Position numbers and translations under genes: made by a program. The notes under the pieces are model-generated. The model ran no database searches. It saw nothing but the letters and a program-made list of their open reading frames with translations, and was not told where the DNA came from. Positions 14,753 through 60,529 of a DNA stretch of 62,007 nucleotides are shown here, one piece after another. The stretch lies in the IMG/VR virus record IMGVR_UViG_3300024979_000006, positions 1-62,007 of that record; one strand, given 5' to 3'. This stretch comes from a virus (Duplodnaviria; Caudoviricetes). Within the stretch, counting starts at the first letter, position 1, and each line of letters starts with the position of its first letter.

Positions 14753-14790
14753 ATCATCGTAGTTTAATTTTACACCAACCAACCAAAAAA

Positions 14791-38769: not shown

Positions 38770-41700
38770 TTAATTCAATTTGCGAGACAATCTGTCTTGC
38801 TGGTTTCGTAACTGCTCAATCCGTCTACGCTTTGCGTCTGGTGATTGATTACTACGTTCAACACTACGAATTATATCATTAAGTTTTGTAACAGCCTGTT
38901 TAACGTGTTCAACAGATTTATATTTTAGTATTGATTCTTTGTTCTCGCTTCTAAATTCTCGCGCTTCTGCTATTTTGCCTTGTTTCTTCAGGTTATTATA
39001 CGTACCGTAGGCTTGTTCAAGTTCTTTTGCTTGTTCGTACATTTGCGATACATACCGACTTCGTGCGCCTTTTAGACTAGACGCCATGTTACCCGTCAAC
39101 ACTTTTGTTAAATCTGATGCAGGTCTTGACGGTTCGTCCGATACACCACGCATTGCCATATCAACACCACCCATAACAAACGCGCCTAACCATGAAAAAT
39201 AAGCTCTGGTAAGGTGATCTATTTGCACAGGTGATAATGTTCCATTGCTTGCTTTACTCAGCTCACGCGCTACCAGTGTCGTATCGCCTCTGTATCGGTA
39301 TTGCGGCTCTAAACGCTCCATGCCCATAGTTTCTATTGGTCGCCCGGTAAAACTATCGTTGTTCGCGTACAGGTCAATAATCGGCTTGATCATTTGTGGT
39401 ATGGGATTCATAGCCAACTGATCGCCTAGCACCTTAGCAACACGCTCTTTAAACCGTTGTCCGGTCATCTCATCATCAAACATTAACTCGGCGGTACGTT
39501 CGGCCAGTGTAGCCAATGCGCCGATTTCAAACGGCTTTGGTATTCTATATGCGGTATCACCAAACTTAAACCACCAGTAGTTGTCTCGGTCCCAATCCTC
39601 ACGCTTCTTCCAATCGTCGTCGTCGTGGTATTGTGTCAATAGTGCCAATGATGCGAGTGTTACTGCCCCAACAACCGTAGCCATTCGCGCCTTGTCCTCG
39701 TTCGTCGCCTTTCCGAGTTTATACATACCCTGTAATCTGGCGTTCATAAACGGTACGATCTTGGTTAATATCCGTATCGATGAGAATGTACCCTGTAACG
39801 AAAAGTCCATCAAATCACGCGCCATTAACGCGGCCTGTCCTTCGCTGACTCCCTGTTGTCTGAGTTGATGATACAGTGACATCCGGTTAATTTCTTCACC
39901 ACGATTACCAAGTTCATTGTATGCGGCGAGAGCCGGCTCAAGCGTAGCATCGTAAAACGCGCGGATCTTGGATTCGTTATCCAAAATACTCGCTTCTTTA
40001 TTGCCGAGCTTGATTAACTGTTGTGTACGTGCTGATTCCGATCCTTCCAGCATGGTGCCGAACCGGATCAAACCACCTGCGGCCAGAGCACTAACGTATT
40101 CAGGATTCGTTTTATCGGTAAGTTGCCAACCTTCTTTCAGGTTCTTACCGATGTTATACGACATGCCTGATCCTGTAGCAATCGATTGAATGGAATCTCG
40201 TATCAGGTTTCGCACTTTGAAAAATGGTGATGCGGTAACGCCCATAGTTAGCATAGACTTAAACGCGCCTAATACACTCATGGCACCGCCCTTGATACCT
40301 GCATATTCCAGTGAACTTATTGCAGCCAATACATAGGGATCATCGACTACAAATTCTTTTTTTGCGCCGTTGTCCTTATACCAAACCGTTTTCTTTGTTC
40401 CTGGTGGTAACAACGTACCATTCGATGCAACGTACTCGCCCATATTCGACGCTACTTGTTTTGCTACACCATGATTAACCGCAGCTTCCAATGTGGCTTT
40501 AGCCGCCCGATTCTTGGCTGACGCATCAATCAAATGTGACCAGTTCATCAACGTGTTTTCAAGCAGGTCTGAATTTAATTTATCAGATCCACCCTTTAAA
40601 CGTTTGATTGCTTCTTGCCTGATCAATCCATTTTTAACATCACCACCACGGACACCGGCCTCGTCATCCATCGACCGATAGAACGGAACATAGAATTCGT
40701 TTTCCCAAAATTGCCGACCGGCACCGTCGATTAATCCTGATTGTTCAGCAATATCCAAAGCGTTCTTATTAAATTCGTTGAACTTAATCAGCGTGTCTTT
40801 GTATGCGTCCGTGCGGTTACGTGTTGTTTGCCCATTAGCCAGCTTGTAATCAAAATCAAGCGTACCATCGGATAATGTTTTCAATGCGTCTATCTTTGGC
40901 TGATCAAACAGGTTTTCACGATCCTCGGCTAGTAACTTCTCAGCACGATTAGCAGAAACCCACCAAAGAAAATCGTGTGTTTCTTTGCCTATCGGCGCGA
41001 AAACATTTTTAATGACACCGCCCGTAGTGTCGCTGTTGTATGAACCGTCTGCATTGATGCTTAATTTTCCGTAACGCATAAACGTTTCAAATGCACCGCT
41101 TGAGCCTTTTGATAACCGTGACAGCATGTAGCCGTTTTCAGATATTTCTTTAATCGGTGCAAACTGATCGAATACGCCCTGCACCCATTTTTTGGCGAAC
41201 GTCTTGCGCATATCTTGTAACTGAGATTTCAATGATTTCTCGGTTACAGTCCGGCCTGTTTTCTTGAATGCGTCCAGTTGCTCTTGCGTCCGTTGACGGT
41301 TCGTGTCGCCGGTCACAATCTCGCGGTCTTGCATGATAGAGAAACGAACATCATTGTTAGATGTGCTGAAATCGCCGTTATTCCCAATTGCCGATTTTAT
41401 TTGGCTGGGGGAGAAGGCGACATACACGTTATGTCTTCCAGCACTTGTGTAATATTCAAACGCACCGTAACCGCCGTCCTCGTAGTCCAGAATCACCACA
41501 CCATCCCGTCCATCAGCGCGCGCTTTTTCAAGCCACTCTGCTTGTTGCACATGGTTAAATGCGTCCCCTTTTGCGTTTATTTCCAAAGGGTTTTTTAATG
41601 CCACGTAGGTGGCTATAACATTCGCTCCTGTGGTGGGAGAATTTGGATTTACGCCTAGCTCTCCAGCGATACGATCAGTTACTTGCCCTGGGCCTTCTTC

Positions 41701-44700
41701 TGGATCATACATGTCATTTATTCGGTCTGCGTATGCTATGCGCCGCTCTGCGTCTGTGTACTCCCTGTCTTCATCGAGATTGTAGTCATATTCTATAAAA
41801 CTTACTCTCCTGAACTGGGAATCCATACGCGCAATAAAACGGGTAAAATACTCTTCCGGCAGCTTGTTTAACGCATCTAAAAAACCCTCCCTGTTAAAAG
41901 TATCCGATCCTCCGGCGTACACACCTCCAGCTATACTAGAACTGGAGGTGAAGAATACCCCATCATCCCAAGGCTGAACGCCTTTTTTGAATACCCCGTT
42001 TTCTATATCGGATTTGGTTCCATGATAAACAACTAATGGTCGTCCTTGCTCATCAACAACCTTACTATCCCCAAACCAGCGGTAAAAATTCCTAACCTCT
42101 TCCTCAGTCATTGCAATCGGCTTGCCATTTGAATTAAGCGTAGAGCGTTCCTTACCATCAATCATCAGCGTCTTATTCTTGATACCGAACAACGGCATCC
42201 CTTCGCCCAGTATCTTGGCTTTCATTTCTGGCGTGATGATTATTGCGGGTCGCCCGTTTACCGAATCCACTTCACCCCCCATCTTCTTAACGATTTCACG
42301 CGCGGCCTGTGTGATTAGTGCCGGCTTACCTTCTGCGTTCAAACCGTTCTCATTACCATACATCGCGTGCGTCCATGGCGAGTCGATTTTTAAATCAGAA
42401 CCGGATAATTCACGCAAACCTGTATTTTCGTTCGGTTTCGATTCCAATAATTTCTTCGCTGCATCTTTGCCAATGTAATCGGCAATCTTATCTTCTGGCA
42501 CATTGGGTATTACGTGCGTATCGTCGTTATTATCGACATACATTAATTCCTGATAATCGCCACCACGATACTCAACTTTTGAAATTGACTTACTCAAATC
42601 GTACAGATCAGCTTGTTGTGCGCCCGTAGACCACGCTACGGACGTTTTACCGTCATCGATAGCTTGTGATATAGCTTTCTTGAGTAGTAACGATATGTAA
42701 GCGTCAGAAGGTTTATTTTGCGCATTGGTTACGAATGGGGCGGGTGGGACGCCTTTACCAAACCCATCCTTCCTACCCGCTTGTAACCGTAGGCTCTGGA
42801 TCTCGTTGATCAACAAACCGTCGCCGCGGGTATCGAACCGCATCCAGGCAATTTGTTTCCCCTTTCCGGCATCACCAAAATGAGTCGTGTCGGATTCATC
42901 GAATTTTTCAACCGTGGGAATCGTAACAACCAGTTCCTTATAATTCGTGCCGCCTGGAATGGTGTAGTTGGAATCAGCGTATTTTGCATCATCATCCAAC
43001 ACCACATCTTCAACCCGCACCGCGTTATCGTTCAGATAATCCAGTACATCTTGTTTCGATACCTTACCCTTGCCGGCACTATCCAGGTAATCGTTTAATC
43101 CGGTCCAGTACACCTCATCCGCTTTGATTCCCATTTTGCTCATGTTACCGGCTAACCAGAGTTTCGTTTGTTGCGCATTACCCGTGAATGCTTTATCCGG
43201 TGCGCCCATGATTCCCTTGCGTAACGCTGAGTAGAATCGTGCAGTTGTGTTACTGGCTAAAAGATTTCCTGAATCTTTGAAATCAGGATCAAATGCGGCA
43301 TTGATGCTGCGGATTTGGTTTGGATTGAAAAGCGTTACTTCCGCATCCATTACATAATTCCCATTAGCTTTTTGTCTTTTTACTGAAACAGAGTCATAAC
43401 CGTTACTACTCAATATTTCTTTTACTCGATTACCACCAATCCCACCGTCACCTAAAAAGTCGCTAAATGATAGGGTTGTATTTTTTAAGACATCAGTCCT
43501 TACTATTGTTTTTCCTATCTCAATTAAATCCTTTCTCTGTTTAACTAATGACCTGTATTTTTTTTCGTCAGCTTGGTTATTAAAGTCCTCTGGAGGTGCA
43601 AACTTATACTTGTGGTCGAAATATTCTAGTTTTTTATTAATAGTCTTTATTTGTTTTTCTATCTGAGTGCCACTAACATCATGGAATTGCGCTAAAAATT
43701 CTGACTCTGTTTCATTCCATCCTGTTAGTTTTAATAATTTTTCAGCAAGTTCGGATTTGCTGTTCATTTCCCATGAATCGTTAATATTAAAAGTGTTACC
43801 TTTTTTAATATGCAACGGATAAATAACAGGATTTCCACCAATCCTATCCGCTGCGTTAAGTGCGTACGCATACGCATCATTGGTTATTTTTGTTACACTG
43901 ATTCCTGAGCCAAACCATCCATTATTAAAAGTAGACGCACCTTGTTTATCTAAATCAAATTCTTTTATGTCTTGGTTTGTACCATGATAATACGTCCTAT
44001 CAACATCAAACCCCATCGCCTTCGCACGTTCCATACGTGCCGCTTGTGACATATCAAGTCCCTTCGCCTTGGCACGTAACCATTCCTCTGCTTCCCCTGC
44101 ATCTGTGCCTTTATAACCTTGCGCTTTGGCTGATTTAAGTATCGTTTCGTTACCACTCGTAGTCTGACTATTCAACGTACTCGGTGCCGAACGTAACGCT
44201 GTTTGCGCCATATACACCAGGTCTTTGGTATTCAGACTAAACGCGAACTTATCACCGAATACTTTGCGTATCGCGGACCGGATGAACGCGATGATTCGTT
44301 GTGTTATGGATAACTTCGGATGATACTGAACCAGATATGCGGCTACTTCTTCATTGACAAACGCGGCGGGTGTATTCTCAGGAACACGGGCAAATGCGGC
44401 TTGTACATCCTTATCAGTCTCGCGTAATTTATTCAGATCATTGAGTATCGATTGAAACTCCTTGGAATCACGGTTCAACTGTAGAGCATGGACACCCAAC
44501 TCATGCAGCATCAATCCGCGCACGTTGTCGGTTGTGTCGATGTTTTCAGGGATGAAGTAGGTTACACCGTTCTTTGGATTAAAAAACGCTTGCGCCTTGC
44601 CGTTGTTGCTGTATTTGGCGATTCGACTTATATCATTCGCACCAATAAACTCGACCTTACCCGTTGCCAGTAATGAATCGACCCAGGATTTACTAAACTC

Positions 44701-47700
44701 CTGATCCATGGCGGCGCGTAGGGTTTGTTTGGTGTGTGGGGTTGCTGCGGTTGTTGATTTGCTGAATTTAGTATCGTCGGTCCAATATCCAAACTCATTT
44801 AACGAATCGCCGTTAGTGAATAATTGACTCGCTTTAACCTTTTTTGAAATTATTTTATAGTCGCCATTTAAATTACTATCACCATGTTCTTTAGCGTAAG
44901 TCTTGCTCAATGTCACCCAATCGCCATTATTAATGCCTGTTTTAACCGACGCTTCTTCTGGTAAATTACGTAATCTTTCGCGCTCACCATACGCCCAGTC
45001 GTACCATTTGGAACCATCTTTTATATGCGCGTCTTTAGGAAGCGTTCCTCGCTTTATATAAGCCGCCATATCCCCATTCAACTTATCAAGTTTATCTGAG
45101 TTGGTTAATATTTTTGGCACAGTTCGATAGACTGTGACAGTGGCGTTTGGTTTGTTTTTTACACTCTGTAATGCGTAATAGGATTCTCTATCGGCAGTGT
45201 CTTGACCTGTGCCGTAATATGACAGCCCTTTTTGACCATAAAAATCTTCTGGATAAATTCCGTTCGATGACACATTATGCGCCGGTGCGCCTTCTTCTGA
45301 GTTAGGCGGTCGGTGTTCGCCCCCGTATTGTTCGGTTTCTTCCGACTTACTAAACTTAACGTCGTTCGGTTTAGCTAACACCTCACGCATCTTAATAACG
45401 GCCTCCTTGACCGGCATAGACCGACCGCCATCGAGACTTATTGTTTTTTTACCAGGATGGTGCGTGGCAATCCGACCTGAAGCATTGTACTGTTCAACGA
45501 GCGTCGGTATGTCGAAGGCGGGTTTTGATTCTGCATCATAACCTTTGAACCAGTCTTTAGCGTTCTTGTGTTTTGCGTCAGTGTAATAAGATGGCAACTC
45601 TCGTTTTTCACCTTCCAATGCTGCCTTTTGCCCCGTCACATAATGCAATCCTTTACCACTTGATTCAAAATCAAGTTGATTCGACTTAGTCATTGTTGTG
45701 GCTTCAGTCGTAGGTGCATCTAAAACGGCACGGTATACGGGCTTTTGTAGCCCATTCCAATCAGCATAACCTTCTTGCTTTATAGCGAAATCTTTCCCTG
45801 TCGCCTGTTTAAACGCATTAGCCTCAACTCTTGCTAATTCAGCGCCATGTTCCCCACCAAATGACCGCTTACCTTGTTGATTGTCGTAGTCAAAATAATT
45901 TGATAGATAAACGTCGTTTTGATCTTTTAATCCACCTGGTTTTAAATCTTCTTTAGAATAGTTGACGCCTGTTGTTGACTCGGATTGATCGCTTTTAGCG
46001 ATAGGTTGTTTAATAGCCGATTGTCGATTTAAAGACTCAATACGCTGCCCAACAAAATCAGGGATTTTTGTTGATCGTCTTCCGTCAGTTAATTTATAAC
46101 TATATCCAATAGGTTCCCCCGTTATTTTTCCGACTTCATAAATAGGTTCTTTTCTTAATCTTACGTCTAAATTTTTAGGATCAACAACATTATTTACAAC
46201 GGTAGTCCATGTTTCACCTTTCCAAACTATAGGCGATTTTTTATCAAATCGTTTATCTTCCGTAAGCGGTGTAACCGACGCGTTCATCCGTAACTGCTCG
46301 GCCTGAGTATCCTTAAAAAACTTCCTGGCTTCAGTTGTCGATTTAAAATTTGCACCGGGAAATATCGGCTTACCGTCCGTAGTGGTATCAACCAACTCCA
46401 CATTGCCGGTTCTTTGGTTTACTCTGGCACTTTTGGGTTTAAGCGTTATTTTCGTGACATCAGGAATCGTCACGCCCTCTCTAGGCACGATGCTATTACC
46501 CTTAACCTCATACACAGATGGGATCAAATGCGGCGCTTCGGTCTTGCTCGATAGGACTCTGAACGCTTCGGATGGTGAGGCGTAAGTGTTAGCTGCTGGC
46601 GTTTCGTTTACTGGTAAATTTACCGCTGGCGTTTCGTTTACTGGTAAATTTACCGCTGGCGTTTCACTTACTGGTAAATTTACCGCTGGCGCGGCGGGAG
46701 CAACGGGCGGCTGTACTGCGGTCAACTTTTTCTTTGCGTCATCTACCGAATATCGATACCAAACAGAACTTCCGTCATCAAATGCGTCAACAAGGTTTAA
46801 TTTTTTACCTGTGCCGTGCATACGTTGATACGTATTGTTAGCAACTTGCATCCGGTCTTGTTCGGTGCTCATTGGCAAGCCTTGGTAATCTTCTCTTATT
46901 TCAATATGTCCGGTTTCAGGATCTTGATTAACTAGCAATCTATTATGTTTACCCTTGCCGGTTATATCACTGTCTATATCTTTTTTGTAGATATTAGCAT
47001 CTCTCATATTTTTTGAAATGCCGTTAGACGCAGCTCGTTGTTGTGCGTTATTTATCTTCTGACTTAACGTTAAGGTTTCCTGAACCGGCGCGGCGGCGGG
47101 CGGTTGTGCTGTGGTTTCTTGAACCGGCGCGGCGGCGGGCGGTTGTGCTGTGGTTTCTTGAACCGGCGCGGCTATGGGCGGCTGTACGGGCGTTTCGTTT
47201 ACTGGCGCGGCAACGGGCGGCTGTGCAATGGTTTCCTGAACCGGTACGGCGGTTTCTGGCTTTTTATTAATATTTTCTAACGGGTTCGTCATTCCAAAAA
47301 CATCATTGGTTTGACCTGCGCCCATGAAATCATCTACAACAGAATCGACATTAACATCTTCGCGTTTAGCTTCAACTTTTGGTTTGTTGACTATTTCATT
47401 ATTGGTATAACTATTTAATAACGATTCTTCCGCTTTCGCTGTCTCTAAATCAGAGTCGTAGTTTTCCCGTATCTGCCACCCGGCGGTTTGACGCGCCAAT
47501 GCGTCAGCGTCCGGGTTCTTGTCTGCCCAATCTTTAAGTGCTTTTTGCGTCCATAAATCCTTGGGCATTGTTAAGATTTCAGGATTAACGGTACGCTCAA
47601 TTTGGTTCTTGGTATTCGGCGCTTCGTCCGTACCCGTTTCGTTACGCACGGCAATGTCGGACAAGCCTTGCAGTATGCGTGTTTGTTTCGGCGTTACGGG

Positions 47701-49671
47701 TTTATTTTCGCTGTAGGCGGCTACCGCATCTTTTATTTCAGTAACGGACGCCTTGACACCAATCTCGCCATTCTGAAACCACTTTGGATTAGGCGATTGC
47801 GAACGTTTACCGTCAGGTGTGCGATCTTGTTGAGAACCGGCACGTAATTCTTCGGCCATAGGTTTAATCGACGGATGATATTCACCCGTCGTTAATTCTG
47901 TTTTTTCACCTAACTGATTCTTACGCTTAATCTCAAAAACGGTTCGAGCAATATCTTTGTCCTCAAACGTTTGACCAGGAATTAAATCATCTTGCGTTTT
48001 TGCGTGAACAACAGAGTACGAACCATCATCGTTGAGGCGAGTTGTCGCTTGGTTTGGGTTTATTTTCGTTAAGTCTGGTTTTTCTTTTGGTTGCTCCTGC
48101 GTAATCTCCGAGGCAGGTTTTTCCTGTGCTACATTTTCCAATGTGGGGACAGTGGTTGCAGTAGGGGGTTCTTGGGGTGTCCATATCGGTTCCTCAGTTT
48201 CATTAGTAACGTTTCCTTCTTCGGGCGGCATATTAACCGGATTACTTCCGGGTGCAAGCGTACCTGTTCTTTGTTCTTCTGGTTGTGCTCGTATATCTTC
48301 TGTAGGTTCATTTTTTGGCGGTAATAATGCGGCGTATTGATTCAACGCGCGTTCGGTTACGTTTCTTAAATTGTCGTCAATTTCAGGATCTTGTAATACT
48401 GAACTTAACTCAGTGATTCGATCATTGATTAACTTGTTACGTTTTGCTGCAATGTCTGGATTATTGACTCGGTTGTTCCCCAGGCTTGTTTCCACTGGCA
48501 AAACTCCACTTCGCCCACCACGTACACCGCTGCCGCTGACAGTTGTTGCAACAATATTTCCTCGTTCCGGCTGTCCGTCACCCTGGCTAATAGTTGACCG
48601 TTCAGCCGCTTCATTGCTAGCAACAGTCTCATTTGTTCTTGATCCATTGTTTACCCCTCCGGCGGCTGCCGCTTGTGTAATAGGTCCGGTTATTGGCCGT
48701 TCCACTGGTAGTGTTTCTACAACTGGTGGTGGTGGTTGTTTTTTATACGTGGCTGGATCTAGCATCGCGGCTGCACCACCCAAGCCCGCACCTGCCACCG
48801 CACCTTGCGCTGCTGCTGAACCAGTGCCTTCCAGTAGCGGTTTATCTAACGCATAATTTTGAGCAACTTGCTCTTGCCATGATTGTGGGGCTTCTTGCAA
48901 TAATCCTTCCGATAACATTGCGCCACCAATATTCCGTAATGCACTACCTGTACCCGGTATGGTACGTCCACCACCGATTATATTTTGTACATCAGTCCAG
49001 CCCATTTTACGGGCTAACCGACCAGATGCACCCGCAATACCGCCCGATAATACCGCACTACCCACTAATGGTAATGTCTGTTTGACTGGATCAAGAATAC
49101 CACCAGGAGTTTCTTGCCGTGTTTGCTCAACGTTTTGACCGGCTATCGCTCCAACCTCAGATAACACACCTTTCTGTAATTGGCTCAATTTTGGATTAAC
49201 AATACCCGCGGCTTTACCAATTACAGAACTGGACGCCATGGGTAAAATTTGCCCTAAAATATCATGTGCCGCAACTGATGGATATTCGGCATACGATTTT
49301 AAACTTGGAATAAAACCTTCTGTATTATGTACCGCCTGATTAGCTTCTTGCTGTGCAGGGGAGTACATCGTATCGAGTTTCGCCTTCACCTCTTTTGGCT
49401 TGAAGTTTAATTGTTCTTCGGCAAATTTACCAACGCGACCACTGGTAGGTATATCAGCTAAACCGATAAATTGCTCCGGTACTGATATACCTGATTTCCA
49501 TAGCGTAACACCGACGTCACCCAAACGTCGCAATAAACTTGTCGCGGGTTTGGGTTTTATTTGTGGTAAATCTAAGTGTGGTATGACTGTACGCGGTTCC
49601 GCTGATTCAGGTAATTGCAGATTATCGTCTGGTTGAAAATCAGCGTAACTAGGAATAGCCATGTTATCCAC
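38770..49671 (-). CDS. Large polyvalent (virion-ejected) protein: zincin-like motif, two ART-PolyVal-like domains, further modules, LPD38-like C-terminus
   Basis: HELGVH (44488-44505); YHGT...G...Y..NPNQIRS (43989) and YHGT..GVFFT...SPSQIKSA.GN.G.F (42027); EIQS module; RIPKPFEIG. Confidence 0.88.
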   Translation of the reverse strand: MDNMAIPSYADFQPDDNLQLPESAEPRTVIPHLDLPQIKPKPATSLLRRLGDVGVTLWKSGISVPEQFIGLADIPTSGRVGKFAEEQLNFKPKEVKAKLDTMYSPAQQEANQAVHNTEGFIPSLKSYAEYPSVAAHDILGQILPMASSSVIGKAAGIVNPKLSQLQKGVLSEVGAIAGQNVEQTRQETPGGILDPVKQTLPLVGSAVLSGGIAGASGRLARKMGWTDVQNIIGGGRTIPGTGSALRNIGGAMLSEGLLQEAPQSWQEQVAQNYALDKPLLEGTGSAAAQGAVAGAGLGGAAAMLDPATYKKQPPPPVVETLPVERPITGPITQAAAAGGVNNGSRTNETVASNEAAERSTISQGDGQPERGNIVATTVSGSGVRGGRSGVLPVETSLGNNRVNNPDIAAKRNKLINDRITELSSVLQDPEIDDNLRNVTERALNQYAALLPPKNEPTEDIRAQPEEQRTGTLAPGSNPVNMPPEEGNVTNETEEPIWTPQEPPTATTVPTLENVAQEKPASEITQEQPKEKPDLTKINPNQATTRLNDDGSYSVVHAKTQDDLIPGQTFEDKDIARTVFEIKRKNQLGEKTELTTGEYHPSIKPMAEELRAGSQQDRTPDGKRSQSPNPKWFQNGEIGVKASVTEIKDAVAAYSENKPVTPKQTRILQGLSDIAVRNETGTDEAPNTKNQIERTVNPEILTMPKDLWTQKALKDWADKNPDADALARQTAGWQIRENYDSDLETAKAEESLLNSYTNNEIVNKPKVEAKREDVNVDSVVDDFMGAGQTNDVFGMTNPLENINKKPETAVPVQETIAQPPVAAPVNETPVQPPIAAPVQETTAQPPAAAPVQETTAQPPAAAPVQETLTLSQKINNAQQRAASNGISKNMRDANIYKKDIDSDITGKGKHNRLLVNQDPETGHIEIREDYQGLPMSTEQDRMQVANNTYQRMHGTGKKLNLVDAFDDGSSVWYRYSVDDAKKKLTAVQPPVAPAAPAVNLPVSETPAVNLPVNETPAVNLPVNETPAANTYASPSEAFRVLSSKTEAPHLIPSVYEVKGNSIVPREGVTIPDVTKITLKPKSARVNQRTGNVELVDTTTDGKPIFPGANFKSTTEARKFFKDTQAEQLRMNASVTPLTEDKRFDKKSPIVWKGETWTTVVNNVVDPKNLDVRLRKEPIYEVGKITGEPIGYSYKLTDGRRSTKIPDFVGQRIESLNRQSAIKQPIAKSDQSESTTGVNYSKEDLKPGGLKDQNDVYLSNYFDYDNQQGKRSFGGEHGAELARVEANAFKQATGKDFAIKQEGYADWNGLQKPVYRAVLDAPTTEATTMTKSNQLDFESSGKGLHYVTGQKAALEGEKRELPSYYTDAKHKNAKDWFKGYDAESKPAFDIPTLVEQYNASGRIATHHPGKKTISLDGGRSMPVKEAVIKMREVLAKPNDVKFSKSEETEQYGGEHRPPNSEEGAPAHNVSSNGIYPEDFYGQKGLSYYGTGQDTADRESYYALQSVKNKPNATVTVYRTVPKILTNSDKLDKLNGDMAAYIKRGTLPKDAHIKDGSKWYDWAYGERERLRNLPEEASVKTGINNGDWVTLSKTYAKEHGDSNLNGDYKIISKKVKASQLFTNGDSLNEFGYWTDDTKFSKSTTAATPHTKQTLRAAMDQEFSKSWVDSLLATGKVEFIGANDISRIAKYSNNGKAQAFFNPKNGVTYFIPENIDTTDNVRGLMLHELGVHALQLNRDSKEFQSILNDLNKLRETDKDVQAAFARVPENTPAAFVNEEVAAYLVQYHPKLSITQRIIAFIRSAIRKVFGDKFAFSLNTKDLVYMAQTALRSAPSTLNSQTTSGNETILKSAKAQGYKGTDAGEAEEWLRAKAKGLDMSQAARMERAKAMGFDVDRTYYHGTNQDIKEFDLDKQGASTFNNGWFGSGISVTKITNDAYAYALNAADRIGGNPVIYPLHIKKGNTFNINDSWEMNSKSELAEKLLKLTGWNETESEFLAQFHDVSGTQIEKQIKTINKKLEYFDHKYKFAPPEDFNNQADEKKYRSLVKQRKDLIEIGKTIVRTDVLKNTTLSFSDFLGDGGIGGNRVKEILSSNGYDSVSVKRQKANGNYVMDAEVTLFNPNQIRSINAAFDPDFKDSGNLLASNTTARFYSALRKGIMGAPDKAFTGNAQQTKLWLAGNMSKMGIKADEVYWTGLNDYLDSAGKGKVSKQDVLDYLNDNAVRVEDVVLDDDAKYADSNYTIPGGTNYKELVVTIPTVEKFDESDTTHFGDAGKGKQIAWMRFDTRGDGLLINEIQSLRLQAGRKDGFGKGVPPAPFVTNAQNKPSDAYISLLLKKAISQAIDDGKTSVAWSTGAQQADLYDLSKSISKVEYRGGDYQELMYVDNNDDTHVIPNVPEDKIADYIGKDAAKKLLESKPNENTGLRELSGSDLKIDSPWTHAMYGNENGLNAEGKPALITQAAREIVKKMGGEVDSVNGRPAIIITPEMKAKILGEGMPLFGIKNKTLMIDGKERSTLNSNGKPIAMTEEEVRNFYRWFGDSKVVDEQGRPLVVYHGTKSDIENGVFKKGVQPWDDGVFFTSSSSIAGGVYAGGSDTFNREGFLDALNKLPEEYFTRFIARMDSQFRRVSFIEYDYNLDEDREYTDAERRIAYADRINDMYDPEEGPGQVTDRIAGELGVNPNSPTTGANVIATYVALKNPLEINAKGDAFNHVQQAEWLEKARADGRDGVVILDYEDGGYGAFEYYTSAGRHNVYVAFSPSQIKSAIGNNGDFSTSNNDVRFSIMQDREIVTGDTNRQRTQEQLDAFKKTGRTVTEKSLKSQLQDMRKTFAKKWVQGVFDQFAPIKEISENGYMLSRLSKGSSGAFETFMRYGKLSINADGSYNSDTTGGVIKNVFAPIGKETHDFLWWVSANRAEKLLAEDRENLFDQPKIDALKTLSDGTLDFDYKLANGQTTRNRTDAYKDTLIKFNEFNKNALDIAEQSGLIDGAGRQFWENEFYVPFYRSMDDEAGVRGGDVKNGLIRQEAIKRLKGGSDKLNSDLLENTLMNWSHLIDASAKNRAAKATLEAAVNHGVAKQVASNMGEYVASNGTLLPPGTKKTVWYKDNGAKKEFVVDDPYVLAAISSLEYAGIKGGAMSVLGAFKSMLTMGVTASPFFKVRNLIRDSIQSIATGSGMSYNIGKNLKEGWQLTDKTNPEYVSALAAGGLIRFGTMLEGSESARTQQLIKLGNKEASILDNESKIRAFYDATLEPALAAYNELGNRGEEINRMSLYHQLRQQGVSEGQAALMARDLMDFSLQGTFSSIRILTKIVPFMNARLQGMYKLGKATNEDKARMATVVGAVTLASLALLTQYHDDDDWKKREDWDRDNYWWFKFGDTAYRIPKPFEIGALATLAERTAELMFDDEMTGQRFKERVAKVLGDQLAMNPIPQMIKPIIDLYANNDSFTGRPIETMGMERLEPQYRYRGDTTLVARELSKASNGTLSPVQIDHLTRAYFSWLGAFVMGGVDMAMRGVSDEPSRPASDLTKVLTGNMASSLKGARSRYVSQMYEQAKELEQAYGTYNNLKKQGKIAEAREFRSENKESILKYKSVEHVKQAVTKLNDIIRSVERSNQSPDAKRRRIEQLRNQQDRLSRKLN
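46595..46691. repeat. 30-bp tandem repeat (PAVNLPVNET)
   Basis: ~3.2 units seen directly. Confidence 0.9.
47074..47244. repeat. 39-bp tandem repeat (QPPAAAPVQETTA)
   Basis: ~4.4 units seen directly. Confidence 0.9.
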
Positions 49672-51685
49672 CTTGCTCTAACGATTGTTTAAGGGTTGAG
49701 TTATATAATTCAGGAAACCATTTGTATAAAAACTGCCTTGATTTCATTTTAGCAGCCTGGTTCTCGCTATCGAAATTTGATAACGCGGCCCGCACATCTT
49801 CGACATTTTCAGGTGGTATATTATCACCTTTACCTGCATTATTACCGCTTAATTTTGCCGACAATGCCTTAGCTTTCAAGCCATAATCTCTATCAGAATT
49901 TTCCTGTTTTTGACGTAATGCGGCTACACCCAAATTATTAGATTCTGGTAACTGTGCCGTATATCCACCACGTTCAGTAGTTCTCGAATGCCCACCATTA
50001 GGACCTTCTTCATACGTGTCTCTGGTGGCCGGATCAGACAATTCTTTTTGCATACGCATTTGCGCCTCGGCTTCCAATGCGTTAGTCAATGCTGCATCTT
50101 TCTCCGTATCGCCTGAATTGGTGAAGCGATCATGTCCCCAGGGTAACGTTTGAATCACACCCTCGCTAGCATTACGTCTGCCTGACTCTTGCCAATTCGC
50201 AATATCAGCCGGCTTCGTCCAGCCTCCGGTATATGATGCGGGCGTTTCGCTTAGTGCCGGTTTTACTGTTGACGTTTCGTTTAGTGCCGGTTTTACTGTT
50301 GACGTTTCGTTTAGTGCCGGTTTTACTGTTGACGTTTCGTTTAGTGCCGGTTTCTGAGTAATATTAGGTGTTGCTATAAATTTTTTAAGATTAGCACTCG
50401 CGTCAGTAATAAGCGTTTGTTGTCCTGGTGATACAATAGGTCCGTCTGGTTTCAAACGTTTTAATAATGCTTGTTGACCACTGGATATAGCAGGTTCAAC
50501 AACAGGTTGTTTTTTAATAATAGGGTCTTGTTGTTGCAAACCTGATATTGGATCAGGTTGTTTTGCAACTATAACAGGCGTATTGTTTGGTGTTGGATTG
50601 ATCACTTCACTCGTTGTATTTTTTACAACAGGTTTATTCGCAATAACGCTTATATCAGGAATCGCTTTACCAAACTTTTTATCAGGATCGTCACCCCAAC
50701 CCTTAGCCGCATGAACTTCACCATTCTCTATTTCCGGTTGCGTACCATGTCCGGTTGCATCCATAACCAACTTTTCAAAAAACTCAGGACCGCCAAAAAA
50801 TTCGACTTCTTCCGGCGTAAACTCAAATTCACCATTTGATATTTTGGCAGGCACTTCTTCACGACCACCCTCCGCTTGTTCTTCCTGTGTATCCTCCACT
50901 TCTGCCGCGTCTTTCAATTCCATTAGTTTTTCGTAACCAATGGCTTTGGCCGCGTCTGCTGGAATGATAAACGTACCTTCCGGCAACTGTGCTGGAATGC
51001 TATCAGATGTTTCTGTACCAGGACCGATTACCGGGCCACCTTCACGTAAACATTGCACACCTTTACCATATCCAACAGAACCGCCTTTGCTAAAGTTAAA
51101 TGGTGTTTTTTCTTGAGCAATACCGGCTTTTTCCTTAGCAGTTGCAATACCATGATTGATCTGATCACGCACTATGGGCTGATCCAGCACTTGACTTGCT
51201 GCCTGTACGCCCATTGGTACGGCGCCTGATGTATTCGGTAACGACGTTGCAAGTTTACTTATACCGGCTTTTATTGGCGAAACTGTTTGCGCTGGTATGG
51301 GTTGTGATTTTTGCAACCGTGCTTTCATCATATCGGCCGGATTCGCCGGATTCGCGCGTCCAGGCGTAGGCACTGGATTCTGCGGTGCGTTTCTCCAGAA
51401 CTCACGCGCTTGCGCCCTGGCTTCGCCACCACCCGCTAATTTAACCGCGAGTTTTCGCGCACAACCACCTTTACTAAACACCTGCTCTTTTTCCTTATCT
51501 TCGGGTTTATAATCAGGATTAGGAATCGTTGTGTAATTAAAATTAACACCTTCGCCATTACCACCGCCACCACCTTGATCATTACCCGGATCAAATTCAT
51601 CAGGATTCGTTTTTGTAATCTTATTGACGACTGTTAAACCAACGCGCCGGCCTGGATTTAAAATGTCTCGGTTAATATCTCTCAT
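49664..51685 (-). CDS. Putative DNA-ejection/internal virion protein
   Basis: Low complexity; GPGTETSDSIPA.L.EG.FIIP and ISNGEF motifs typical of injected or tape-measure proteins; position before the polyvalent gene. Confidence 0.7.
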   Translation of the reverse strand: MRDINRDILNPGRRVGLTVVNKITKTNPDEFDPGNDQGGGGGNGEGVNFNYTTIPNPDYKPEDKEKEQVFSKGGCARKLAVKLAGGGEARAQAREFWRNAPQNPVPTPGRANPANPADMMKARLQKSQPIPAQTVSPIKAGISKLATSLPNTSGAVPMGVQAASQVLDQPIVRDQINHGIATAKEKAGIAQEKTPFNFSKGGSVGYGKGVQCLREGGPVIGPGTETSDSIPAQLPEGTFIIPADAAKAIGYEKLMELKDAAEVEDTQEEQAEGGREEVPAKISNGEFEFTPEEVEFFGGPEFFEKLVMDATGHGTQPEIENGEVHAAKGWGDDPDKKFGKAIPDISVIANKPVVKNTTSEVINPTPNNTPVIVAKQPDPISGLQQQDPIIKKQPVVEPAISSGQQALLKRLKPDGPIVSPGQQTLITDASANLKKFIATPNITQKPALNETSTVKPALNETSTVKPALNETSTVKPALSETPASYTGGWTKPADIANWQESGRRNASEGVIQTLPWGHDRFTNSGDTEKDAALTNALEAEAQMRMQKELSDPATRDTYEEGPNGGHSRTTERGGYTAQLPESNNLGVAALRQKQENSDRDYGLKAKALSAKLSGNNAGKGDNIPPENVEDVRAALSNFDSENQAAKMKSRQFLYKWFPELYNSTLKQSLEQGG
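50243..50353. repeat. 30-bp tandem repeat (KPALNETSTV)
   Basis: ~3.7 units seen directly. Confidence 0.9.
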
Positions 51686-51697: not shown

Positions 51698-54600
51698 CTA
51701 TAAACTGTGTGACCATGTTTCACTGACTGAATTGTTTGACGATGTAGACCAACTCAAACCTGTATTTAATCCTGCATGTACTGATGCGCCATAGGATACT
51801 GACGAACTAAACGCGGCTATTAATGATGACTCAACTCGCGCCATATCGCCCATTGTTTTTAACGCAAGTTCTTTATTAGCCAGCATAGATGTGACATTAG
51901 CTTTCATCGACTCCATTTGATACTCGCCTTCAGCAATAACGAGCTTTATATCACTCTCTCGTATAGCTGTTTGTGCTCCGATTCTAGCAGTTTCACCTCG
52001 CACTTGCTCACTGAATATTTGCCCGTCTGCATTATATACAGCAGTTAAACCTTCGACTTGAGAAATCATGGCTTGTACGGATGATTTATACAAATTAACT
52101 TGGGAATCGTTATAGTCAGTCAAACTTTTCAACCTCGATGCTTCGGCTTCAACGGCTATACGATATGCCTCACTGATGTTTTTATTGCTTTCATTGCTAC
52201 TTTTCAAACGTTCTGATTCGGCTTCTACGACATAACGATATATTTCTGATGCAACTTTATTAATCTCTGAAATAGAACTGAGTCTCATGGATTCGGCTTT
52301 AACTTCTTCAGAGAATAGCGTTATCGCATTGGTATTAACATCACCCAATGATTTTAAACGGGTTGCTTCTGCATTTACCTGCACTTCAAATGATTGCAGT
52401 TCTAATTTGCTTTGTTCGACCAATGCGCTAACTCTGGCGCTTTCGGCTTCCGTCGCTACTTTATAAATATCAATCAGATTTTTATTATTTTCTCCAATCG
52501 TGCGTAATCGTTCAGATTCCACCGAAACGTTTGTTTTTGTTAAATCCATATACAAACGGTTAATCTCATTAACCGCCCCTGTGCGGGACGCTTCGGCTTG
52601 TACCAATGCTTTCAAAACTTCCGTTTGTGTTTGGTTTGCATCGCCGATTGCTTTTAACCTGGCGGCTTCGTGTTCAGTTTCAACGCGACTTGCTTCCAGT
52701 GATACTTTATTTGTATCGTTTAGCGCATTAACTCGCGCGGTTTCAGCTTGCACCAATGCAGTAAACTGGTTGGTATAATTTTCATTGGCTGATATAGCCG
52801 CACGTAACCGTTCGGTTTCTGCCGTTATTCCAAGTTTCTCAAATTCTATGAGAACCTTATTCATTTCGTTAATAATGCTGGAACGCTGGCTCTCGCTATC
52901 GACCAAAACTTTATAGATGTTAGTGGTAGCAAGGTTGTAATCGTTTAACGCGCTTACACGCGCTTTTTCAGCGTCTACGGATAACCGTACTACTTCAATG
53001 TTATCCTTGTTTGAATTACCAACGGCTGACACACGCGCACTCTCGGCGTCAACTTGCTTTGCGTAGACATTAACAATTGAACTGTTCGTATCTGCCAACG
53101 CTCGTAAACGTGTTGCTTCGCCATCCACGCCTTTGGTGTAAAATTCCATTAACACACGATTCGAGTCTGAAATAGACTGCACCCTGGCAACTTCAGCATC
53201 GACTTGAATCTTGAAAATATTCGTAGCAGTTTGGTTCGTGTCGCTCAAGCTACGTAAACGCGCGACTTCGGAATCGACCGATAAACGCGCCACCTCTACG
53301 TTCAATTTATTGATATCGCCAATAGATGCAACACGCGCCGATTCGCCCTCGATTACTGCCTTATACAGATTAACAACACTATCGTTTGAACGTGATATTG
53401 AATCGAGTCTTGATGATTCAGCCTGTACACCTGCTTTCATAACTTCCAGGTTTAAACGATTTATTTCGTTATACGCGGCGGTTCGTGCGCTTTCTGCGTC
53501 TACCAATGCCCGGTGAATCGTTGTTAAACTGGTATTGGTATCGTTCAGTATTTTTAAACGATCCAACTCGGCTGTAATTTCAGCCTCATATTTTTTCAAC
53601 ACTAATTCACTAAGCGACGTTAATGTCGATAGTCTTGATTGTTCGCTATCAATACCGATGCGGTACAACTCGCTTATCACACGATTCGAGTCATTTAAAC
53701 TAGCTATTCGTTTTGATTCAGCGTCTATCTGTGCGTTATAAATCTGAATTTTTGCTGTGTTACTGGTGTTCAATGCTGCAATTCTTTGTGTTTCAACTTC
53801 TGTAGTTAATCTGGCAATATCCACATTTAGTCTATTCAACTCATTAATCGCACCAATTTGTTTTGAAATAGCGTCCGTTGTCGCACCATACGCTGTTATA
53901 TCGGCTTGATATAATTGTGTCTCTGAATCGAGTCTTGCTTTTTCAGCGTTTGTTAATTCTGCAAATATACGGGTAGTTGCGTCGTTGTATGAATTTAACG
54001 CATCTAAACGTGATGTTTCTGAACCTATCCTCGCCTTAAATATATCGACCTGTTTTGCTAAAACGTCAAGCGGGACATCAAACGCAACCTTAATATCTTG
54101 CTCACGTTTCTTTAATTCAAATTCCCCACCTGTTGACCAGGCATCTATTTGAGTTTTGAAATTGTTGGATACAGAATCATACGCCCTGAACTTCATTTCT
54201 TCGCCGGTCCATTGCGCCTTGTAGCCATCCCATTCGACTTGTTTTGCTGATAGCAACGCAGAGTAACGTGTTATGGAATCACGGAACTGTTCAAGCAACA
54301 ATGCGTCACTTTGAATTTGCGTTTTAACTTCTTCCAGTTCTGACTTATACAACTCGAATAACGATACCACCGTACCAACACGGGTTTTATATCGCTCTAG
54401 CAACTGTTCATTGAGTGTGCCAATTAACCGCTGTGCTTCTAATTCAATTCGGTATTTTTCAAGTTTATTGATCTCGGTCCGTGTCAGCGTTTCATAAACC
54501 TTGGCTTTTGTTTCATATAGCAATACTGCTGCATTTAGATACGAAACTTTCAGGTTATACAAACTGATTGCGGATTCAACTAAATATTTGGCCGCTTCTA

Positions 54601-56608
54601 ATGCTCGGTTTTGTTTGGCGTCATGTAACACCATCAACTCATGACTTAACGCTATCGCACTGGTAAATGCAAACTGTACATTTTGCTGCTCAAGATTGGC
54701 CTGGCCGATCATAATCGCGCGGTTATCTGCGATGTTCTGAACCATTTGCGCTTGTTGCGCTTGTAACGTAATACGCGCCTGTGCCGCTGATGATAATGCG
54801 TGTCCGGCTCGCGCCCACTGGCGACCAACAGCCGTAACATGCGCTGCTGTCTGTGCTGCGGTTTTCTCTCTACCTTCGTCCCATATCTGCGTTTTTACAG
54901 CGTCACTCAACGACGTTTTGGTGACATTCATAATCATGTCAAACAACCGTTGTTGCACACCATCGGTCAAAATATTCTGATATTCCTGATCTGTGAATGA
55001 AAATGCTACCGCTGGCGGCGCGTCAATTAAATCAGGCTCAACACCGGTGAACAAATGTTCAAGAATTGTCGGTGCGGTAGGTAATGTAATTGTGAAATAT
55101 TCGTCCTCAATAGGCATTTCCTTTGAGGGCTTATCGGGGAACACACGCGACTGTAACGATATATCAACCGGCAACACACCATCAAACGCACCTGGTGTAC
55201 TGACAACGGTTAATGTGGGTTCAGTCATAGATAATGTTGGCGCTGCCGGTATCACCAAATCTGCAATGCTACCCAATGAAACATCGCTCGGTGGTAATGC
55301 AAAATCTGGCGATACCGTTAATAATGCTGCTGATGCTGGAAAATTCGGAATTATCGACGGTTTGACGGGCGTGTCCGGGAACGTCGAATTTGCTGTAATC
55401 AAATCAGCGACTATCAAATAGTTTGGCGAAACATCAGCCATAATTGGCGCTAATGCAAAATTCGGTACGGGTGGATCAATCGTAGGTTTAGATTCAAACG
55501 CTGGCGTAACGTCAGGCATCCCGCCCATAGTTGGAAAATTAGCCTCAATGGGAAACAACTGCGCTGCTGTTGGAAAATTAGGGGCTGGATCTATTATCGA
55601 TACAGACGTTGCAAAATTTGGCGTGTTATCGAATAGTTCGGGTTGTGCCGGGTAATTCGCACCAGGATCAGTTATTTCAGCGGCAATATTAAAATTAGCA
55701 ACAACATCAGCTAAAACATTAGGCGAAGGAAACGACGCGCTGGAATCCGCTAACGCACTTTGTACAGGGAAATTAGCACTCAAATCCGACAACGTGCCTA
55801 CTGAGGTCGGGAAGTTCGGGTTTGAGTCTACGATTGTAACGCTGGTTGTAAAATTCGGATTAACCGGCTCAAGCGTAGGACTCGCTGGTAGTGTCGGTGC
55901 CGGGTCCACCATTACCGCATTAATCGTAAAATTTGGCACAATATCCAACGGATTAGATGGAGTCGGATATGCGGGAATTGGGCTTATAATCGCATTAACG
56001 GGCGAAAAATTAGCAATGGCTTCTTGTAATTCTTGAGCCGTTGGGAAATTAGGTACTGGATCAATGATCGTTGTGGTTGTATCGAAATTAGATACAGCCG
56101 CTTCCATTGTCGGTGCAGAACCATAACTCGGTGTGATCGTAGGTAACGTGCCAATCGATGGGAAACTTGGCGTGATCGTATTTGTGGACGGTACTGATGG
56201 GAAACTGGCAATCGCTGGCGTAGCTGTTGGCGCTAGTTCAAAATTAGGCGTAGGTGCAACAATAGCAGAGCCAGCAGGAAAATTCGGCACAACTAATTCA
56301 AATGACGGTTGTACCGGAACCGTTATTGTAATTGACGACAATCCGTCAAGTGCGGCTGGTCGTATGGGTGCATCAGGGGCTATGTAATCGTCAACAGTCG
56401 ATGTTACCGCACCCAACGTACCGGCAATGGTAGGTAACGCGGTTAGCGTGTCTATTGCTGCTGATATTTGCGTATTTAATTCAGCAAACGCGGTTCGTGC
56501 TTCAGTTGCGTACTCTTGCGAATCACGAATACCGCTAACGACAACGGTTTGTACGGGCGCCTCAACAAGAGGATCTCCCATAATATTGGGATCAAACGAA
56601 TTAGCCAT
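51698..56608 (-). CDS. 1636-aa virion protein with 13-aa Pro-rich repeats and 25-aa helical repeats
   Basis: ~26 x (P/A)NF-x10 at 55271-56287; 28 x 25-aa (..AE..R.......N......) at 51941-54040. Confidence 0.85.
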   Translation of the reverse strand: MANSFDPNIMGDPLVEAPVQTVVVSGIRDSQEYATEARTAFAELNTQISAAIDTLTALPTIAGTLGAVTSTVDDYIAPDAPIRPAALDGLSSITITVPVQPSFELVVPNFPAGSAIVAPTPNFELAPTATPAIASFPSVPSTNTITPSFPSIGTLPTITPSYGSAPTMEAAVSNFDTTTTIIDPVPNFPTAQELQEAIANFSPVNAIISPIPAYPTPSNPLDIVPNFTINAVMVDPAPTLPASPTLEPVNPNFTTSVTIVDSNPNFPTSVGTLSDLSANFPVQSALADSSASFPSPNVLADVVANFNIAAEITDPGANYPAQPELFDNTPNFATSVSIIDPAPNFPTAAQLFPIEANFPTMGGMPDVTPAFESKPTIDPPVPNFALAPIMADVSPNYLIVADLITANSTFPDTPVKPSIIPNFPASAALLTVSPDFALPPSDVSLGSIADLVIPAAPTLSMTEPTLTVVSTPGAFDGVLPVDISLQSRVFPDKPSKEMPIEDEYFTITLPTAPTILEHLFTGVEPDLIDAPPAVAFSFTDQEYQNILTDGVQQRLFDMIMNVTKTSLSDAVKTQIWDEGREKTAAQTAAHVTAVGRQWARAGHALSSAAQARITLQAQQAQMVQNIADNRAIMIGQANLEQQNVQFAFTSAIALSHELMVLHDAKQNRALEAAKYLVESAISLYNLKVSYLNAAVLLYETKAKVYETLTRTEINKLEKYRIELEAQRLIGTLNEQLLERYKTRVGTVVSLFELYKSELEEVKTQIQSDALLLEQFRDSITRYSALLSAKQVEWDGYKAQWTGEEMKFRAYDSVSNNFKTQIDAWSTGGEFELKKREQDIKVAFDVPLDVLAKQVDIFKARIGSETSRLDALNSYNDATTRIFAELTNAEKARLDSETQLYQADITAYGATTDAISKQIGAINELNRLNVDIARLTTEVETQRIAALNTSNTAKIQIYNAQIDAESKRIASLNDSNRVISELYRIGIDSEQSRLSTLTSLSELVLKKYEAEITAELDRLKILNDTNTSLTTIHRALVDAESARTAAYNEINRLNLEVMKAGVQAESSRLDSISRSNDSVVNLYKAVIEGESARVASIGDINKLNVEVARLSVDSEVARLRSLSDTNQTATNIFKIQVDAEVARVQSISDSNRVLMEFYTKGVDGEATRLRALADTNSSIVNVYAKQVDAESARVSAVGNSNKDNIEVVRLSVDAEKARVSALNDYNLATTNIYKVLVDSESQRSSIINEMNKVLIEFEKLGITAETERLRAAISANENYTNQFTALVQAETARVNALNDTNKVSLEASRVETEHEAARLKAIGDANQTQTEVLKALVQAEASRTGAVNEINRLYMDLTKTNVSVESERLRTIGENNKNLIDIYKVATEAESARVSALVEQSKLELQSFEVQVNAEATRLKSLGDVNTNAITLFSEEVKAESMRLSSISEINKVASEIYRYVVEAESERLKSSNESNKNISEAYRIAVEAEASRLKSLTDYNDSQVNLYKSSVQAMISQVEGLTAVYNADGQIFSEQVRGETARIGAQTAIRESDIKLVIAEGEYQMESMKANVTSMLANKELALKTMGDMARVESSLIAAFSSSVSYGASVHAGLNTGLSWSTSSNNSVSETWSHSL

Positions 56609-59885: not shown

Positions 59886-60529
59886 TAGCCGTTAAACGCA
59901 GACATCGGCCAGCTTAACAGATCCCACCATACTTCAATGGTGCCTGTCCAGGTTTGAGTCGCATCACCGTCAACATCGCCCGTTGTTGCATAGGCTGAGT
60001 TTAGATATAACTCTTTAGCAGTTGTTGTGCCGTCAAGGACAAAGAAATCGCCGACAACACCCGTACCCAAAATGGCTGATGTCAACGCACCGGCAACGTT
60101 AATCGTTGCTGATGATGTGAACGCAGTTGTTGGGATAAGATTTTGCGTAGTCGTTGCTAGCGTAGTAGATACTGCCGCGCTCGTACCAATACCTACCGCA
60201 CCCGTCGTTGAATTTAACGTAGTCGCAATAGCACTGGTTGTTTTCTGTTTCAGAGCAATCTCGGCGGCTCTAAATTGAATCACGCCTTTTGGGAACGTGA
60301 ATAGCTTGGAACTTTGATACTCAACACCATTAACAACCGTTTGCGGTAAATCAGTCAACGTAAATGTCGATTTTACTGACGTACCAACTTGCTTGTGTAC
60401 AACAGATAATTGAGCTGCCGTAAACGTACCGCTTAATGGGTTCGCTGTGGTCGTATTTAATTGTCCAATGGAACCATTGGATTTTACCGCTAATTGACCT
60501 AGCGGTTGATCATCAAAAATGTCTGACAT
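59885..60529 (-). CDS. Virion structural protein (paralog of 8327-9022)
   Basis: Shares the motifs listed for 8327-9022. Confidence 0.7.
   Translation of the reverse strand: MSDIFDDQPLGQLAVKSNGSIGQLNTTTANPLSGTFTAAQLSVVHKQVGTSVKSTFTLTDLPQTVVNGVEYQSSKLFTFPKGVIQFRAAEIALKQKTTSAIATTLNSTTGAVGIGTSAAVSTTLATTTQNLIPTTAFTSSATINVAGALTSAILGTGVVGDFFVLDGTTTAKELYLNSAYATTGDVDGDATQTWTGTIEVWWDLLSWPMSAFNG

Follow-up and report, generated by a model that had tools for sequence, protein, structure and literature searches.

Why does one phage protein hold two long tandem arrays, one of Pro-rich 13-residue units and the other of helical 25-residue units, in nearly equal numbers? The question is raised by the gene at positions 51698 to 56608 (minus strand) of the virus record IMGVR_UViG_3300024979_000006, a linear DNA of 62,007 bases, estimated 96% complete, which is called the window below. 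The gene is a single open reading frame (ORF) of 1636 amino acids (aa) that encodes both arrays, and its product is designated P0001. The evidence below suggests that P0001 probably serves an F116-like podophage as a giant tail tube subunit that measures itself, and that it belongs to the family of gp37, the tail tube protein of Pseudomonas podophage A1002.

A sequence-only reading of the locus had described about 26 units of 13 aa, one of them a 14-mer, and 28 units of 25 aa free of indels, and these arrays map exactly onto the gene. The 13-mer units are anchored on a [PAS][NSA][FY] motif, and the single extra residue lies behind unit 13. The 25-mer array keeps one register with zero indels, with E8 and R11 present in 26 of the 28 units each and N19 in 23. 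Proline accounts for 17% of the residues in the 13-mer array and for none of the 700 residues in the 25-mer array. By BLOSUM autocorrelation, the first array yielded z values of 11.3 at lag 13 and 12.4 at lag 26, and the second array yielded values of 22.6 at lag 25 and 25.3 at lag 50; in both arrays, double units of 26 and 50 aa thus outscored single units, and none of 2000 shuffles reached the observed values. Tandem Repeats Finder detected no repeat at the DNA level in the gene, arguing that the arrays are old. A period of 25 residues corresponds to seven helical turns, and the unit column table revealed a core spacing of 4-3-4-3-4-3-4, which would give the helix a slight left-handed twist resembling the gp37 spiral. 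On a 25/7 helical wheel, hydrophobic or small residues form two stripes about 145 degrees apart.

The region between the arrays relates P0001 to a large family. The family phrog_10969 matches residues 454 to 839 (E value of 1.7e-66; profile positions 107 to 488 of 632), and a hidden Markov model (HMM) of the central domain matches residues 448 to 841. No Pfam family was found at E ≤ 0.01 for P0001 or for six smaller neighboring ORFs that were scanned. A word-based homolog search yielded 3 matches only. An exhaustive search with residues 440 to 860 yielded 1540 cluster representatives at E ≤ 0.001; among the best 150 of these 1540, most proteins are 600 to 680 aa long and a minority are longer. 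The largest relative found, L032, has 2143 residues. The family includes the phrog_10969 proteins of F116-like phages (Hollowayvirus), such as the 630-aa gp52 of phiC725A, which have the central domain in common with P0001 (24 to 27% identity by tblastn) and the same gene order, i.e., the homolog followed by a mid-size gene and a giant gene. They differ from P0001 in that they are basal forms, with flanks of approximately 95 and 145 residues and without clear arrays. They are annotated as hypothetical, "structural protein" or "LigA", and no assignment of these proteins as tail tubes was found in the literature, as far as the available texts go.

We built two profiles, A1 from 54 basal homologs and A2 from 22 sequences including P0001, and compared them with the PDB. 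A1 matched a single solved chain, 26la_X/44nx ("Structural protein", 318 aa; E value of 4.7e-17), with profile positions 196 to 306 aligned to residues 94 to 205, and A2 matched residues 98 to 204 of the same chain (E value of 6.9e-8). This chain is the tail tube protein gp37 of A1002 (PDB 44NX / 26LA; PMC13730344, PLoS Biol 2026). According to the available text of that paper, gp37 comprises an irregular extended outer wall termed the fibre-dock domain (residues 4 to 105), a nozzle-dock (residues 106 to 186), and inner-channel helices in a 12-fold left-handed arrangement (residues 187 to 305). The tube formed by twelve copies has two layers and measures 240 Å; in the published model it lies outside mature virions that have not yet ejected, and six chain-like fibres wrap it (PMC13730344). 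The same elements follow in the same order in P0001: first an N-terminal part that is extended and non-globular, Pro-rich and predicted to be coil, then docking helices, and finally long predicted C-terminal helices. Coil and long C-terminal helices are also predicted at these places in the basal homolog P0006, and A1002 and the window phage both belong to a T=9-type podophage lineage. In contrast, gp37 has 318 residues, a 24-nm tube and no repeat arrays described in the available text, versus 1636 residues and 26 + 28 tandem units in P0001; its outer part contains three short helices, whereas that of P0001 is a Pro-rich coil. The tubes of N4-like phages (N4, DEV) are also helix-built and dodecameric and lengthen a podophage tail, but they are single-layered, unlike the two-layer gp37 tube (PMC13730344), and no sequence match to them was obtained in the PDB searches with P0001, A1 and A2.

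We next asked how the two sides of the central domain vary across homologs, by measuring the lengths of the flanks N- and C-terminal of the HMM match. The database set comprised 153 proteins, nine of which were truncated and were dropped (P0125, P0094, P0116, P0020, P0046, P0093, P0077, P0026 and P0021). In the 144 others, the flank lengths correlated with r = 0.966 and a slope of 1.81 C-terminal residues per N-terminal residue. Scanning IMG/VR with A2 identified 80 loci; in these and two GenBank loci, the domain occurs in 89 ORFs. Exclusion of the two GenBank ORFs, of two that run off contig ends and of one with a partial match left 84, which gave r = 0.984 and a slope of 1.73. For the pooled 228 full-length homologs the values were 0.979 and 1.76. 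The relationship also held in 220 independent phylogenetic contrasts, computed on a tree of 221 non-identical central domains (r = 0.977, slope of 1.78), with agreement of sign in 29 of the 30 largest N-flank contrasts and 28 of the 30 largest C-flank contrasts. Expanded forms represent 42 of the 221 and fall in 15 separate clades. The short forms taken alone (125 proteins of at most 720 aa) showed a weak relation (r = 0.25).

Two outliers, P0110 and P0143, are accounted for by their being tandem paralogs. Pairs of tandem paralogs occur in seven loci (L046, L052, L055, L057, L059, L061 and L065), where the C flanks of the two proteins are equal (226 to 227 residues) and their N flanks are of 151 to 164 versus 90 to 125 residues. 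The equality of the C flanks suggests that helices within one tube must match. Such pairs also suggest a tube of two alternating subunits, which would echo the two gp37 conformers in A1002.

The unit sizes are informative beyond the total lengths. Six unit-size classes, which arose by independent expansions, were found, with N- and C-terminal periods of 13 and 25 residues (P0001, P0002 and P0005), 19 and 35 (L032, L023, L003, L017, L025 and L051), 23 and 42 (P0004, the homolog of Shewanella phage Y11, and L056), 30 and 57 (P0112), 55 and 103 (L029), and 61 and 116 (P0003). The ratio of the C- to the N-terminal period lies between 1.83 and 1.92 throughout. P0095, a clade-mate of L029, also shows lags of 55 and 103, weakly. 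The automatic unit counter returned wrong fundamentals on weak arrays (P0005, P0124, P0095, P0039, P0007, L025 and L051), and autocorrelation tables were used instead. Where the arrays are clean, the numbers of N- and C-terminal units are near 1:1, namely, 25.7 and 25.5 in L032, 18.2 and 18.3 in L056, 15.5 and 15.6 in L003, 11.6 and 11.6 in L017, 5.8 and 5.4 in L029, 3.8 and 4.1 in P0004, 4.0 and 5.0 in P0003, and 26 and 28 in P0001. As a separate observation, the proteins of L032 (gene at 8462 to 14893 of its locus) and L003 (gene at 8660 to 13477) end in long, low-complexity Ser/Asn-rich tails of the SNSSSN type behind the helical array; the Ser-rich end of P0001 is short.

The most recent duplications are informative as to their positions. 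In L032, the youngest duplicates are found at the ends of both arrays that are proximal to the center (80 and 85% nucleotide identity in the N-terminal array, 81 to 83% in the C-terminal array). The unit-similarity matrices of its two arrays correlate when they are compared in mirrored order (r of 0.34 to 0.41; null standard deviation of 0.077, null maximum of 0.28), and no correlation is seen in parallel order near zero offset (r of 0.02 to 0.06). L023 contains young blocks of like age in both arrays, with about seven super-units on the N-terminal side (76 to 90% nucleotide identity) and about six to seven on the C-terminal side (78 to 89%); its unit similarity is high in mirrored and parallel orientation alike. 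The duplication patterns of L032 and L023 are those predicted for a hairpin with matched, compensating duplications. Together with the fixed period ratio, the mirrored recent duplications argue for a local register between the two arrays.

We then examined predicted structures. The AlphaFold2 model of residues 343 to 1056 of P0001 has a mean predicted local distance difference test (pLDDT) score of 61.7. In this model, the 13-mers are coil, and helices are predicted at residues 546 to 560, 569 to 601, 607 to 746, and from 753 onward, the last two corresponding to fragment residues 265 to 404 and 411 to 710; an unbroken helix of 300 residues runs through the first eight 25-mers with modest confidence. 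The model of P0006 (mean pLDDT of 73) has a helix at residues 18 to 53, a coil at 54 to 198, short helices between 199 and 253, and long helices at 260 to 452 and 461 to 606. The pLDDT of its coil is mostly about 70 to 80, with a dip to 41 to 47 near residues 111 to 130. With VIA-align, about 90 residues spanning positions 15 to 614 of this basal model matched antiparallel two-helix coiled coils in many rows, and these ranges suggest that the N-terminal helix may pack against the C-terminal end of the last helix. A predicted complex of the extended part of P0001 (fragment residues 1 to 203) with the helices (265 to 714), computed from the A2 alignment and run without controls, scored 0.10 and 0.07, against a mark of 0.32, and weighs on neither side. 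When the basal model was compared with the PDB using Foldseek (library to 8 April 2026, without the A1002 entries), nothing was found at E ≤ 0.001. The matches from a wide VIA-align search (best Z of 9.0) are all generic helical structures inside the grey zone of the tool, and its T7 gp14 rows are considered below as a lead only.

By analogy with gp37, about twelve copies of P0001 would stand side by side with their central helices docked in the nozzle. The C-terminal helix of each copy would be one staff of a helical barrel that heads away from the head and forms the DNA channel, and the N-terminal Pro-rich chain would return along the barrel exterior as an almost fully extended thread. With the thread running back outside the barrel, the N and C termini would come together at the far tip. 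At about 2.9 Å per residue, a thread unit of 13 residues would span one 25-residue helix unit of about 37 Å (1.5 Å per residue); the family slope of 1.76 to 1.81 corresponds to about 2.7 Å per extended residue. In such an assembly the tube lengthens only if both arrays gain units, so that tail length would be encoded in the tube protein itself and a tape measure would be unneeded. The repeat part would be about 105 nm long, and the whole helical stretch (residues ~607 to 1600) about 130 to 150 nm, tilt being allowed for. The arrays, the co-variation of the flanks, the homology with gp37 in the dock and the helix and coil predictions are direct results; from them we infer the 12-fold assembly, the thread-on-helix contact, the external rather than ejected location, and these lengths.

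A two-layer ruler with a chain that folds back and arrays that expand together had been proposed by the sequence-only reading, along with collection of homologs through the central region as a check. That check brought out the correlated flanks (r of 0.98, slope of about 1.8) and the near 1:1 unit counts, which together with the solved homolog support the proposal, in which each 13-mer would lie along one 25-mer. The same reading had assigned the rod to a tail spike or an ejection conduit. A permanent tail tube of the virion is most likely instead.

Published micrographs of phages with homologs bear on this assignment. The phage phiC725A, whose 630-aa homolog has flanks of 93 and 142 residues, has a head of 78 nm and a thin, rigid tail of 66 nm, read by its authors as packed fibres (PMC5217972). 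Shewanella phage Y11, whose homolog has 901 residues and flanks of 190 and 310, has a head of 57.8 nm and a long non-contractile tail of 72.2 nm, and the available part of the report does not mention a tape measure (PMC10846135). The thin tails of these two phages indirectly support an external tube. Phages USP_18/25 were called myoviruses from micrographs, no lengths being given in the available text (PMC7573221), and A1002 itself has a head of about 70 nm and a tail of about 40 nm (PMC13730344).

Several observations weigh against P0001 being a self-measuring tube of the gp37 type. Raw tail lengths scale poorly with protein size (66 nm for 630 aa versus 72 nm for 901 aa): the 168 additional helical residues of the Y11 homolog predict a difference of about 25 nm and the raw difference is 6 nm, although a crude scaling of our own by head size brings it to about 27 nm. 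Some homologs break the length rule, i.e., P0074 (N flank +68, C flank +16), L076 (flanks of 81 and 275) and L060 (127 and 132). The unit-similarity (Mantel) test was not significant or not discriminating in P0001, L056, L003 and L017. AlphaFold2 modelled the 13-mers with low confidence (pLDDT of 36 to 58). Lastly, the sequence homology with gp37 covers only about 110 residues in the dock region; alignment of the C-terminal helices with gp37 using A1 and A2 was not significant (i-Evalue of 100 to 160), and P0001 alone versus the PDB gave no gp37 match, its sole match being a GCN4 fusion at E = 0.71. Two more such observations, on gene position and on the fold of the dock, are taken up with the alternative that they favor.

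According to that alternative, P0001 is stored in the capsid like T7 gp14, gp15 and gp16 and builds a channel through the envelope at infection, the arrays pairing only after ejection. The P0001 gene lies in the position of T7 gp14, ahead of two genes for presumed ejection proteins, and the order of the tube-like, 673-aa and 3633-aa genes mirrors that of T7 gp14, gp15 and gp16 (PMC8954989, PMC4819975). For the F116 group, Hardies et al. could not point to an IVP-B candidate, as far as the available text tells, and they described N4 gp52, encoded at the same position, as an unstructured N-terminal part followed by a helical, IVP-B-like part (PMC4819975). In addition, the basal dock region (P0006 residues 197 to 313) aligns with 102 of 102 residues of post-ejection T7 gp14 in 7ey7_A, which we take to be a gp14 chain from its residue range and the available text of PMC8954989 (Z of 8.1, root-mean-square deviation of 4.6 Å, in the grey zone), and with the gp14 chain 8e4g_a (Z of 7.8). 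However, according to the tool itself, a Z of about 8 does not rise above noise when models are helical, and neither P0001 and A1 against the PDB nor Pfam gave a sequence match to gp14 chains. Moreover, gp37, the sole solved homolog, is external in mature virions (PMC13730344), and phages with homologs show thin tails of 66 to 72 nm before infection (PMC5217972, PMC10846135). T7 gp14 (IVP-B) resembles P0001 as the first of an ejection-type trio and as a nozzle-docked helical channel with a grey-zone match in the dock; it differs in having 196 residues, in being hexameric, and in passing from storage in the capsid to the outer membrane upon ejection (PMC8954989), and it has neither a thread layer nor repeats. 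A helix of 105 to 150 nm would also be far longer than a Gram-negative envelope. An ejected conduit is thus unlikely.

In another explanation, the helices do form a tube, and the Pro-rich array serves as a free tether, or as a rope for docking fibres, that reaches the same end without touching them. Co-variation of the flanks by itself shows equal span only, and the low pLDDT of the 13-mers would suit a free chain. Ropes and docks of this sort are known in A1002, where gp39 is a separate rope-like chain of about 300 Å that runs along the tail and bears 11 fibre dimers, and where the outer wall of gp37 docks fibres (PMC13730344, available text). Nevertheless, the unit periods, and not just the totals, hold a fixed ratio in all six unit-size classes, and recent duplications lie at mirrored positions; a free tether needs no 1:1 units. 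The pLDDT of the basal coil, at about 70 to 80, is also unusual for a free chain. Taken together, these features make a span without contact quite improbable.

A coiled-coil fibre of three chains, or a tape-measure-like ruler housed in a conventional tail, might be suspected from the long Pro-free helix with its 4-3-4-3-4-3-4 core spacing and from the GCN4 fusion as sole single-sequence PDB match, but P0001 has no tape-measure or fibre family match, the scanned ORFs revealed no gene for a major tail protein, homology to a tube protein is present, and the two stripes 145 degrees apart would in our view fit a helix held between two neighbors better than a three-stranded rope, so that we regard this explanation as very improbable. 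The tape measure proteins of long-tailed phages are mostly helical, and tail length scales with theirs at about 1.5 Å per residue; they are distinct from the tube around them, which consists of many small subunits. In contrast, the P0001 tube subunit would measure itself, with a second array keeping step.

Publication of the two-layer tube, described for a 318-aa protein, dates from November 2026 (PMC13730344). The available text of that paper gives no family size, F116-like assignment, giant repeat-bearing members or unit-for-unit lockstep; its supplements may show gp37 homologs. Targeted searches of the literature brought up no prior description of co-expanding arrays or of a self-measuring tube. 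On balance, the case is evenly poised for a wider view in which a podophage lineage builds siphovirus-length tails, of about 50 to perhaps 200 nm as estimated from the homologs found, from about twelve copies of a self-ruling polypeptide. Its two arrays would have expanded many times independently, unit for unit and in mirrored order, by compensatory co-duplication at about 1.85 helical residues per extended residue, and the tube may be derived from a gp14-type ejection channel that became permanently deployed. The tube family may descend from such a channel or simply be related to it.

If P0001 is a self-measuring tube subunit, tail length is set by the number of tube repeats without a tape measure and is readable from sequence. 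This would explain why podovirus-type genomes have been described as those of thin-tailed, siphovirus-like or even myovirus-like phages (F116-like phages, Y11 and USP_18/25). The 1:1 unit rule over six unit sizes would represent a rare, clean case of lockstep between two arrays in one protein, from which a geometric constant could be measured, and assembly could be studied on a natural series of tubes that differ stepwise in length. It would also lend itself to the design of nanotubes, with repeat count setting the length.

The P0001 gene belongs to an F116-like podophage genome. The window contains terminase, portal, major head protein and replication genes, and its portal is 42 to 44% identical to those of F116-like Pseudomonas phages, phages 8P and USP_18/25, Shewanella phage Y11, and a Bacillus podophage. 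The order on the minus strand is a gene for a 567-aa Hc3-like structural protein, a 493-aa ORF, the P0001 gene, the 673-aa gene, the gene of the 3633-aa polyvalent protein, and an endolysin gene (coordinates of the principal features are in the table). The last 8 bases of the 673-aa gene are also the first 8 of the 3633-aa gene. In phiC725A, Y11 and the metagenomic podovirus MW202615, the homolog likewise lies directly ahead of a mid-size gene, which is followed by a giant gene. In BLASTP comparisons of the window proteins with three reference phages, only the 567-aa, 673-aa and 3633-aa proteins matched. The 3633-aa protein is probably the ejected giant protein of the F116-like group, which is described as homologous to IVP-D in the available text of PMC4819975. 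Among the 36 window ORFs scanned, none matched tail tube, sheath or tape-measure families, apart from local, weak matches of the 673-aa protein to tape-measure PHROGs. No clear trend was seen between the size of upstream genes and tube length in eight loci.

Table. Coordinates of the P0001 gene, its segments and the two genes that follow it in the window
Feature	Position	Strand	Basis or remark
Whole gene, putative giant two-layer tail tube subunit (P0001)	51698..56608	-	ORF; phrog_10969
N-terminal segment, residues 1-107	56288..56608	-	Putative N-terminal helix at far tube tip, by analogy with basal homolog P0006
26 Pro-rich 13-aa units (one 14-mer), residues 108-446, proposed outer thread	55271..56287	-	
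Conserved central region, residues 447-856: non-repeat Pro-rich stretch, helices, long helix	54041..55270	-	
Dock-like helical region (approximate), residues ~540-650, with QIWDEGRE motif	54659..54991	-	Profile A2 versus gp37
28 helical 25-aa units, residues 857-1556, proposed inner channel helix	51941..54040	-	
C-terminal segment, residues 1557-1636 and stop, Ser-rich end as in homologs	51698..51940	-	Alignments A1, A2 consensus
673-aa gene, second ejection protein position (T7 gp15 position)	49664..51685	-	Residues 205-298 36% identical to phiC725A gp53 N terminus
3633-aa polyvalent protein, presumed ejected cargo (T7 gp16 / IVP-D position)	38770..49671	-	LPD38 2.7e-40, ART-PolyVal 5.2e-24 (Pfam)

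The 673-aa gene contains a tandem repeat of its own at positions 50243 to 50353, with 3.7 copies of a 30-bp unit that are 98% matching and encode a ten-residue motif. This repeat is young and visible at the DNA level, unlike the arrays of the tube gene. In the replication module, three DNA methyltransferase-like genes and one PAPS-reductase-like gene (19728 to 21200, 23321 to 24874, 36021 to 36764, and 25905 to 26642) may have roles in DNA modification or anti-restriction. In the tail module, an ORF of at least 423 aa (3 to 1271, minus strand) runs off the start of the window, so that a structural gene may be cut there. Finally, two ORFs, at 59885 to 60529 (214 aa) and 8327 to 9022 (231 aa), both match phrog_11997, a family of no known function; they look like paralogs, located in the head module and the tail module.

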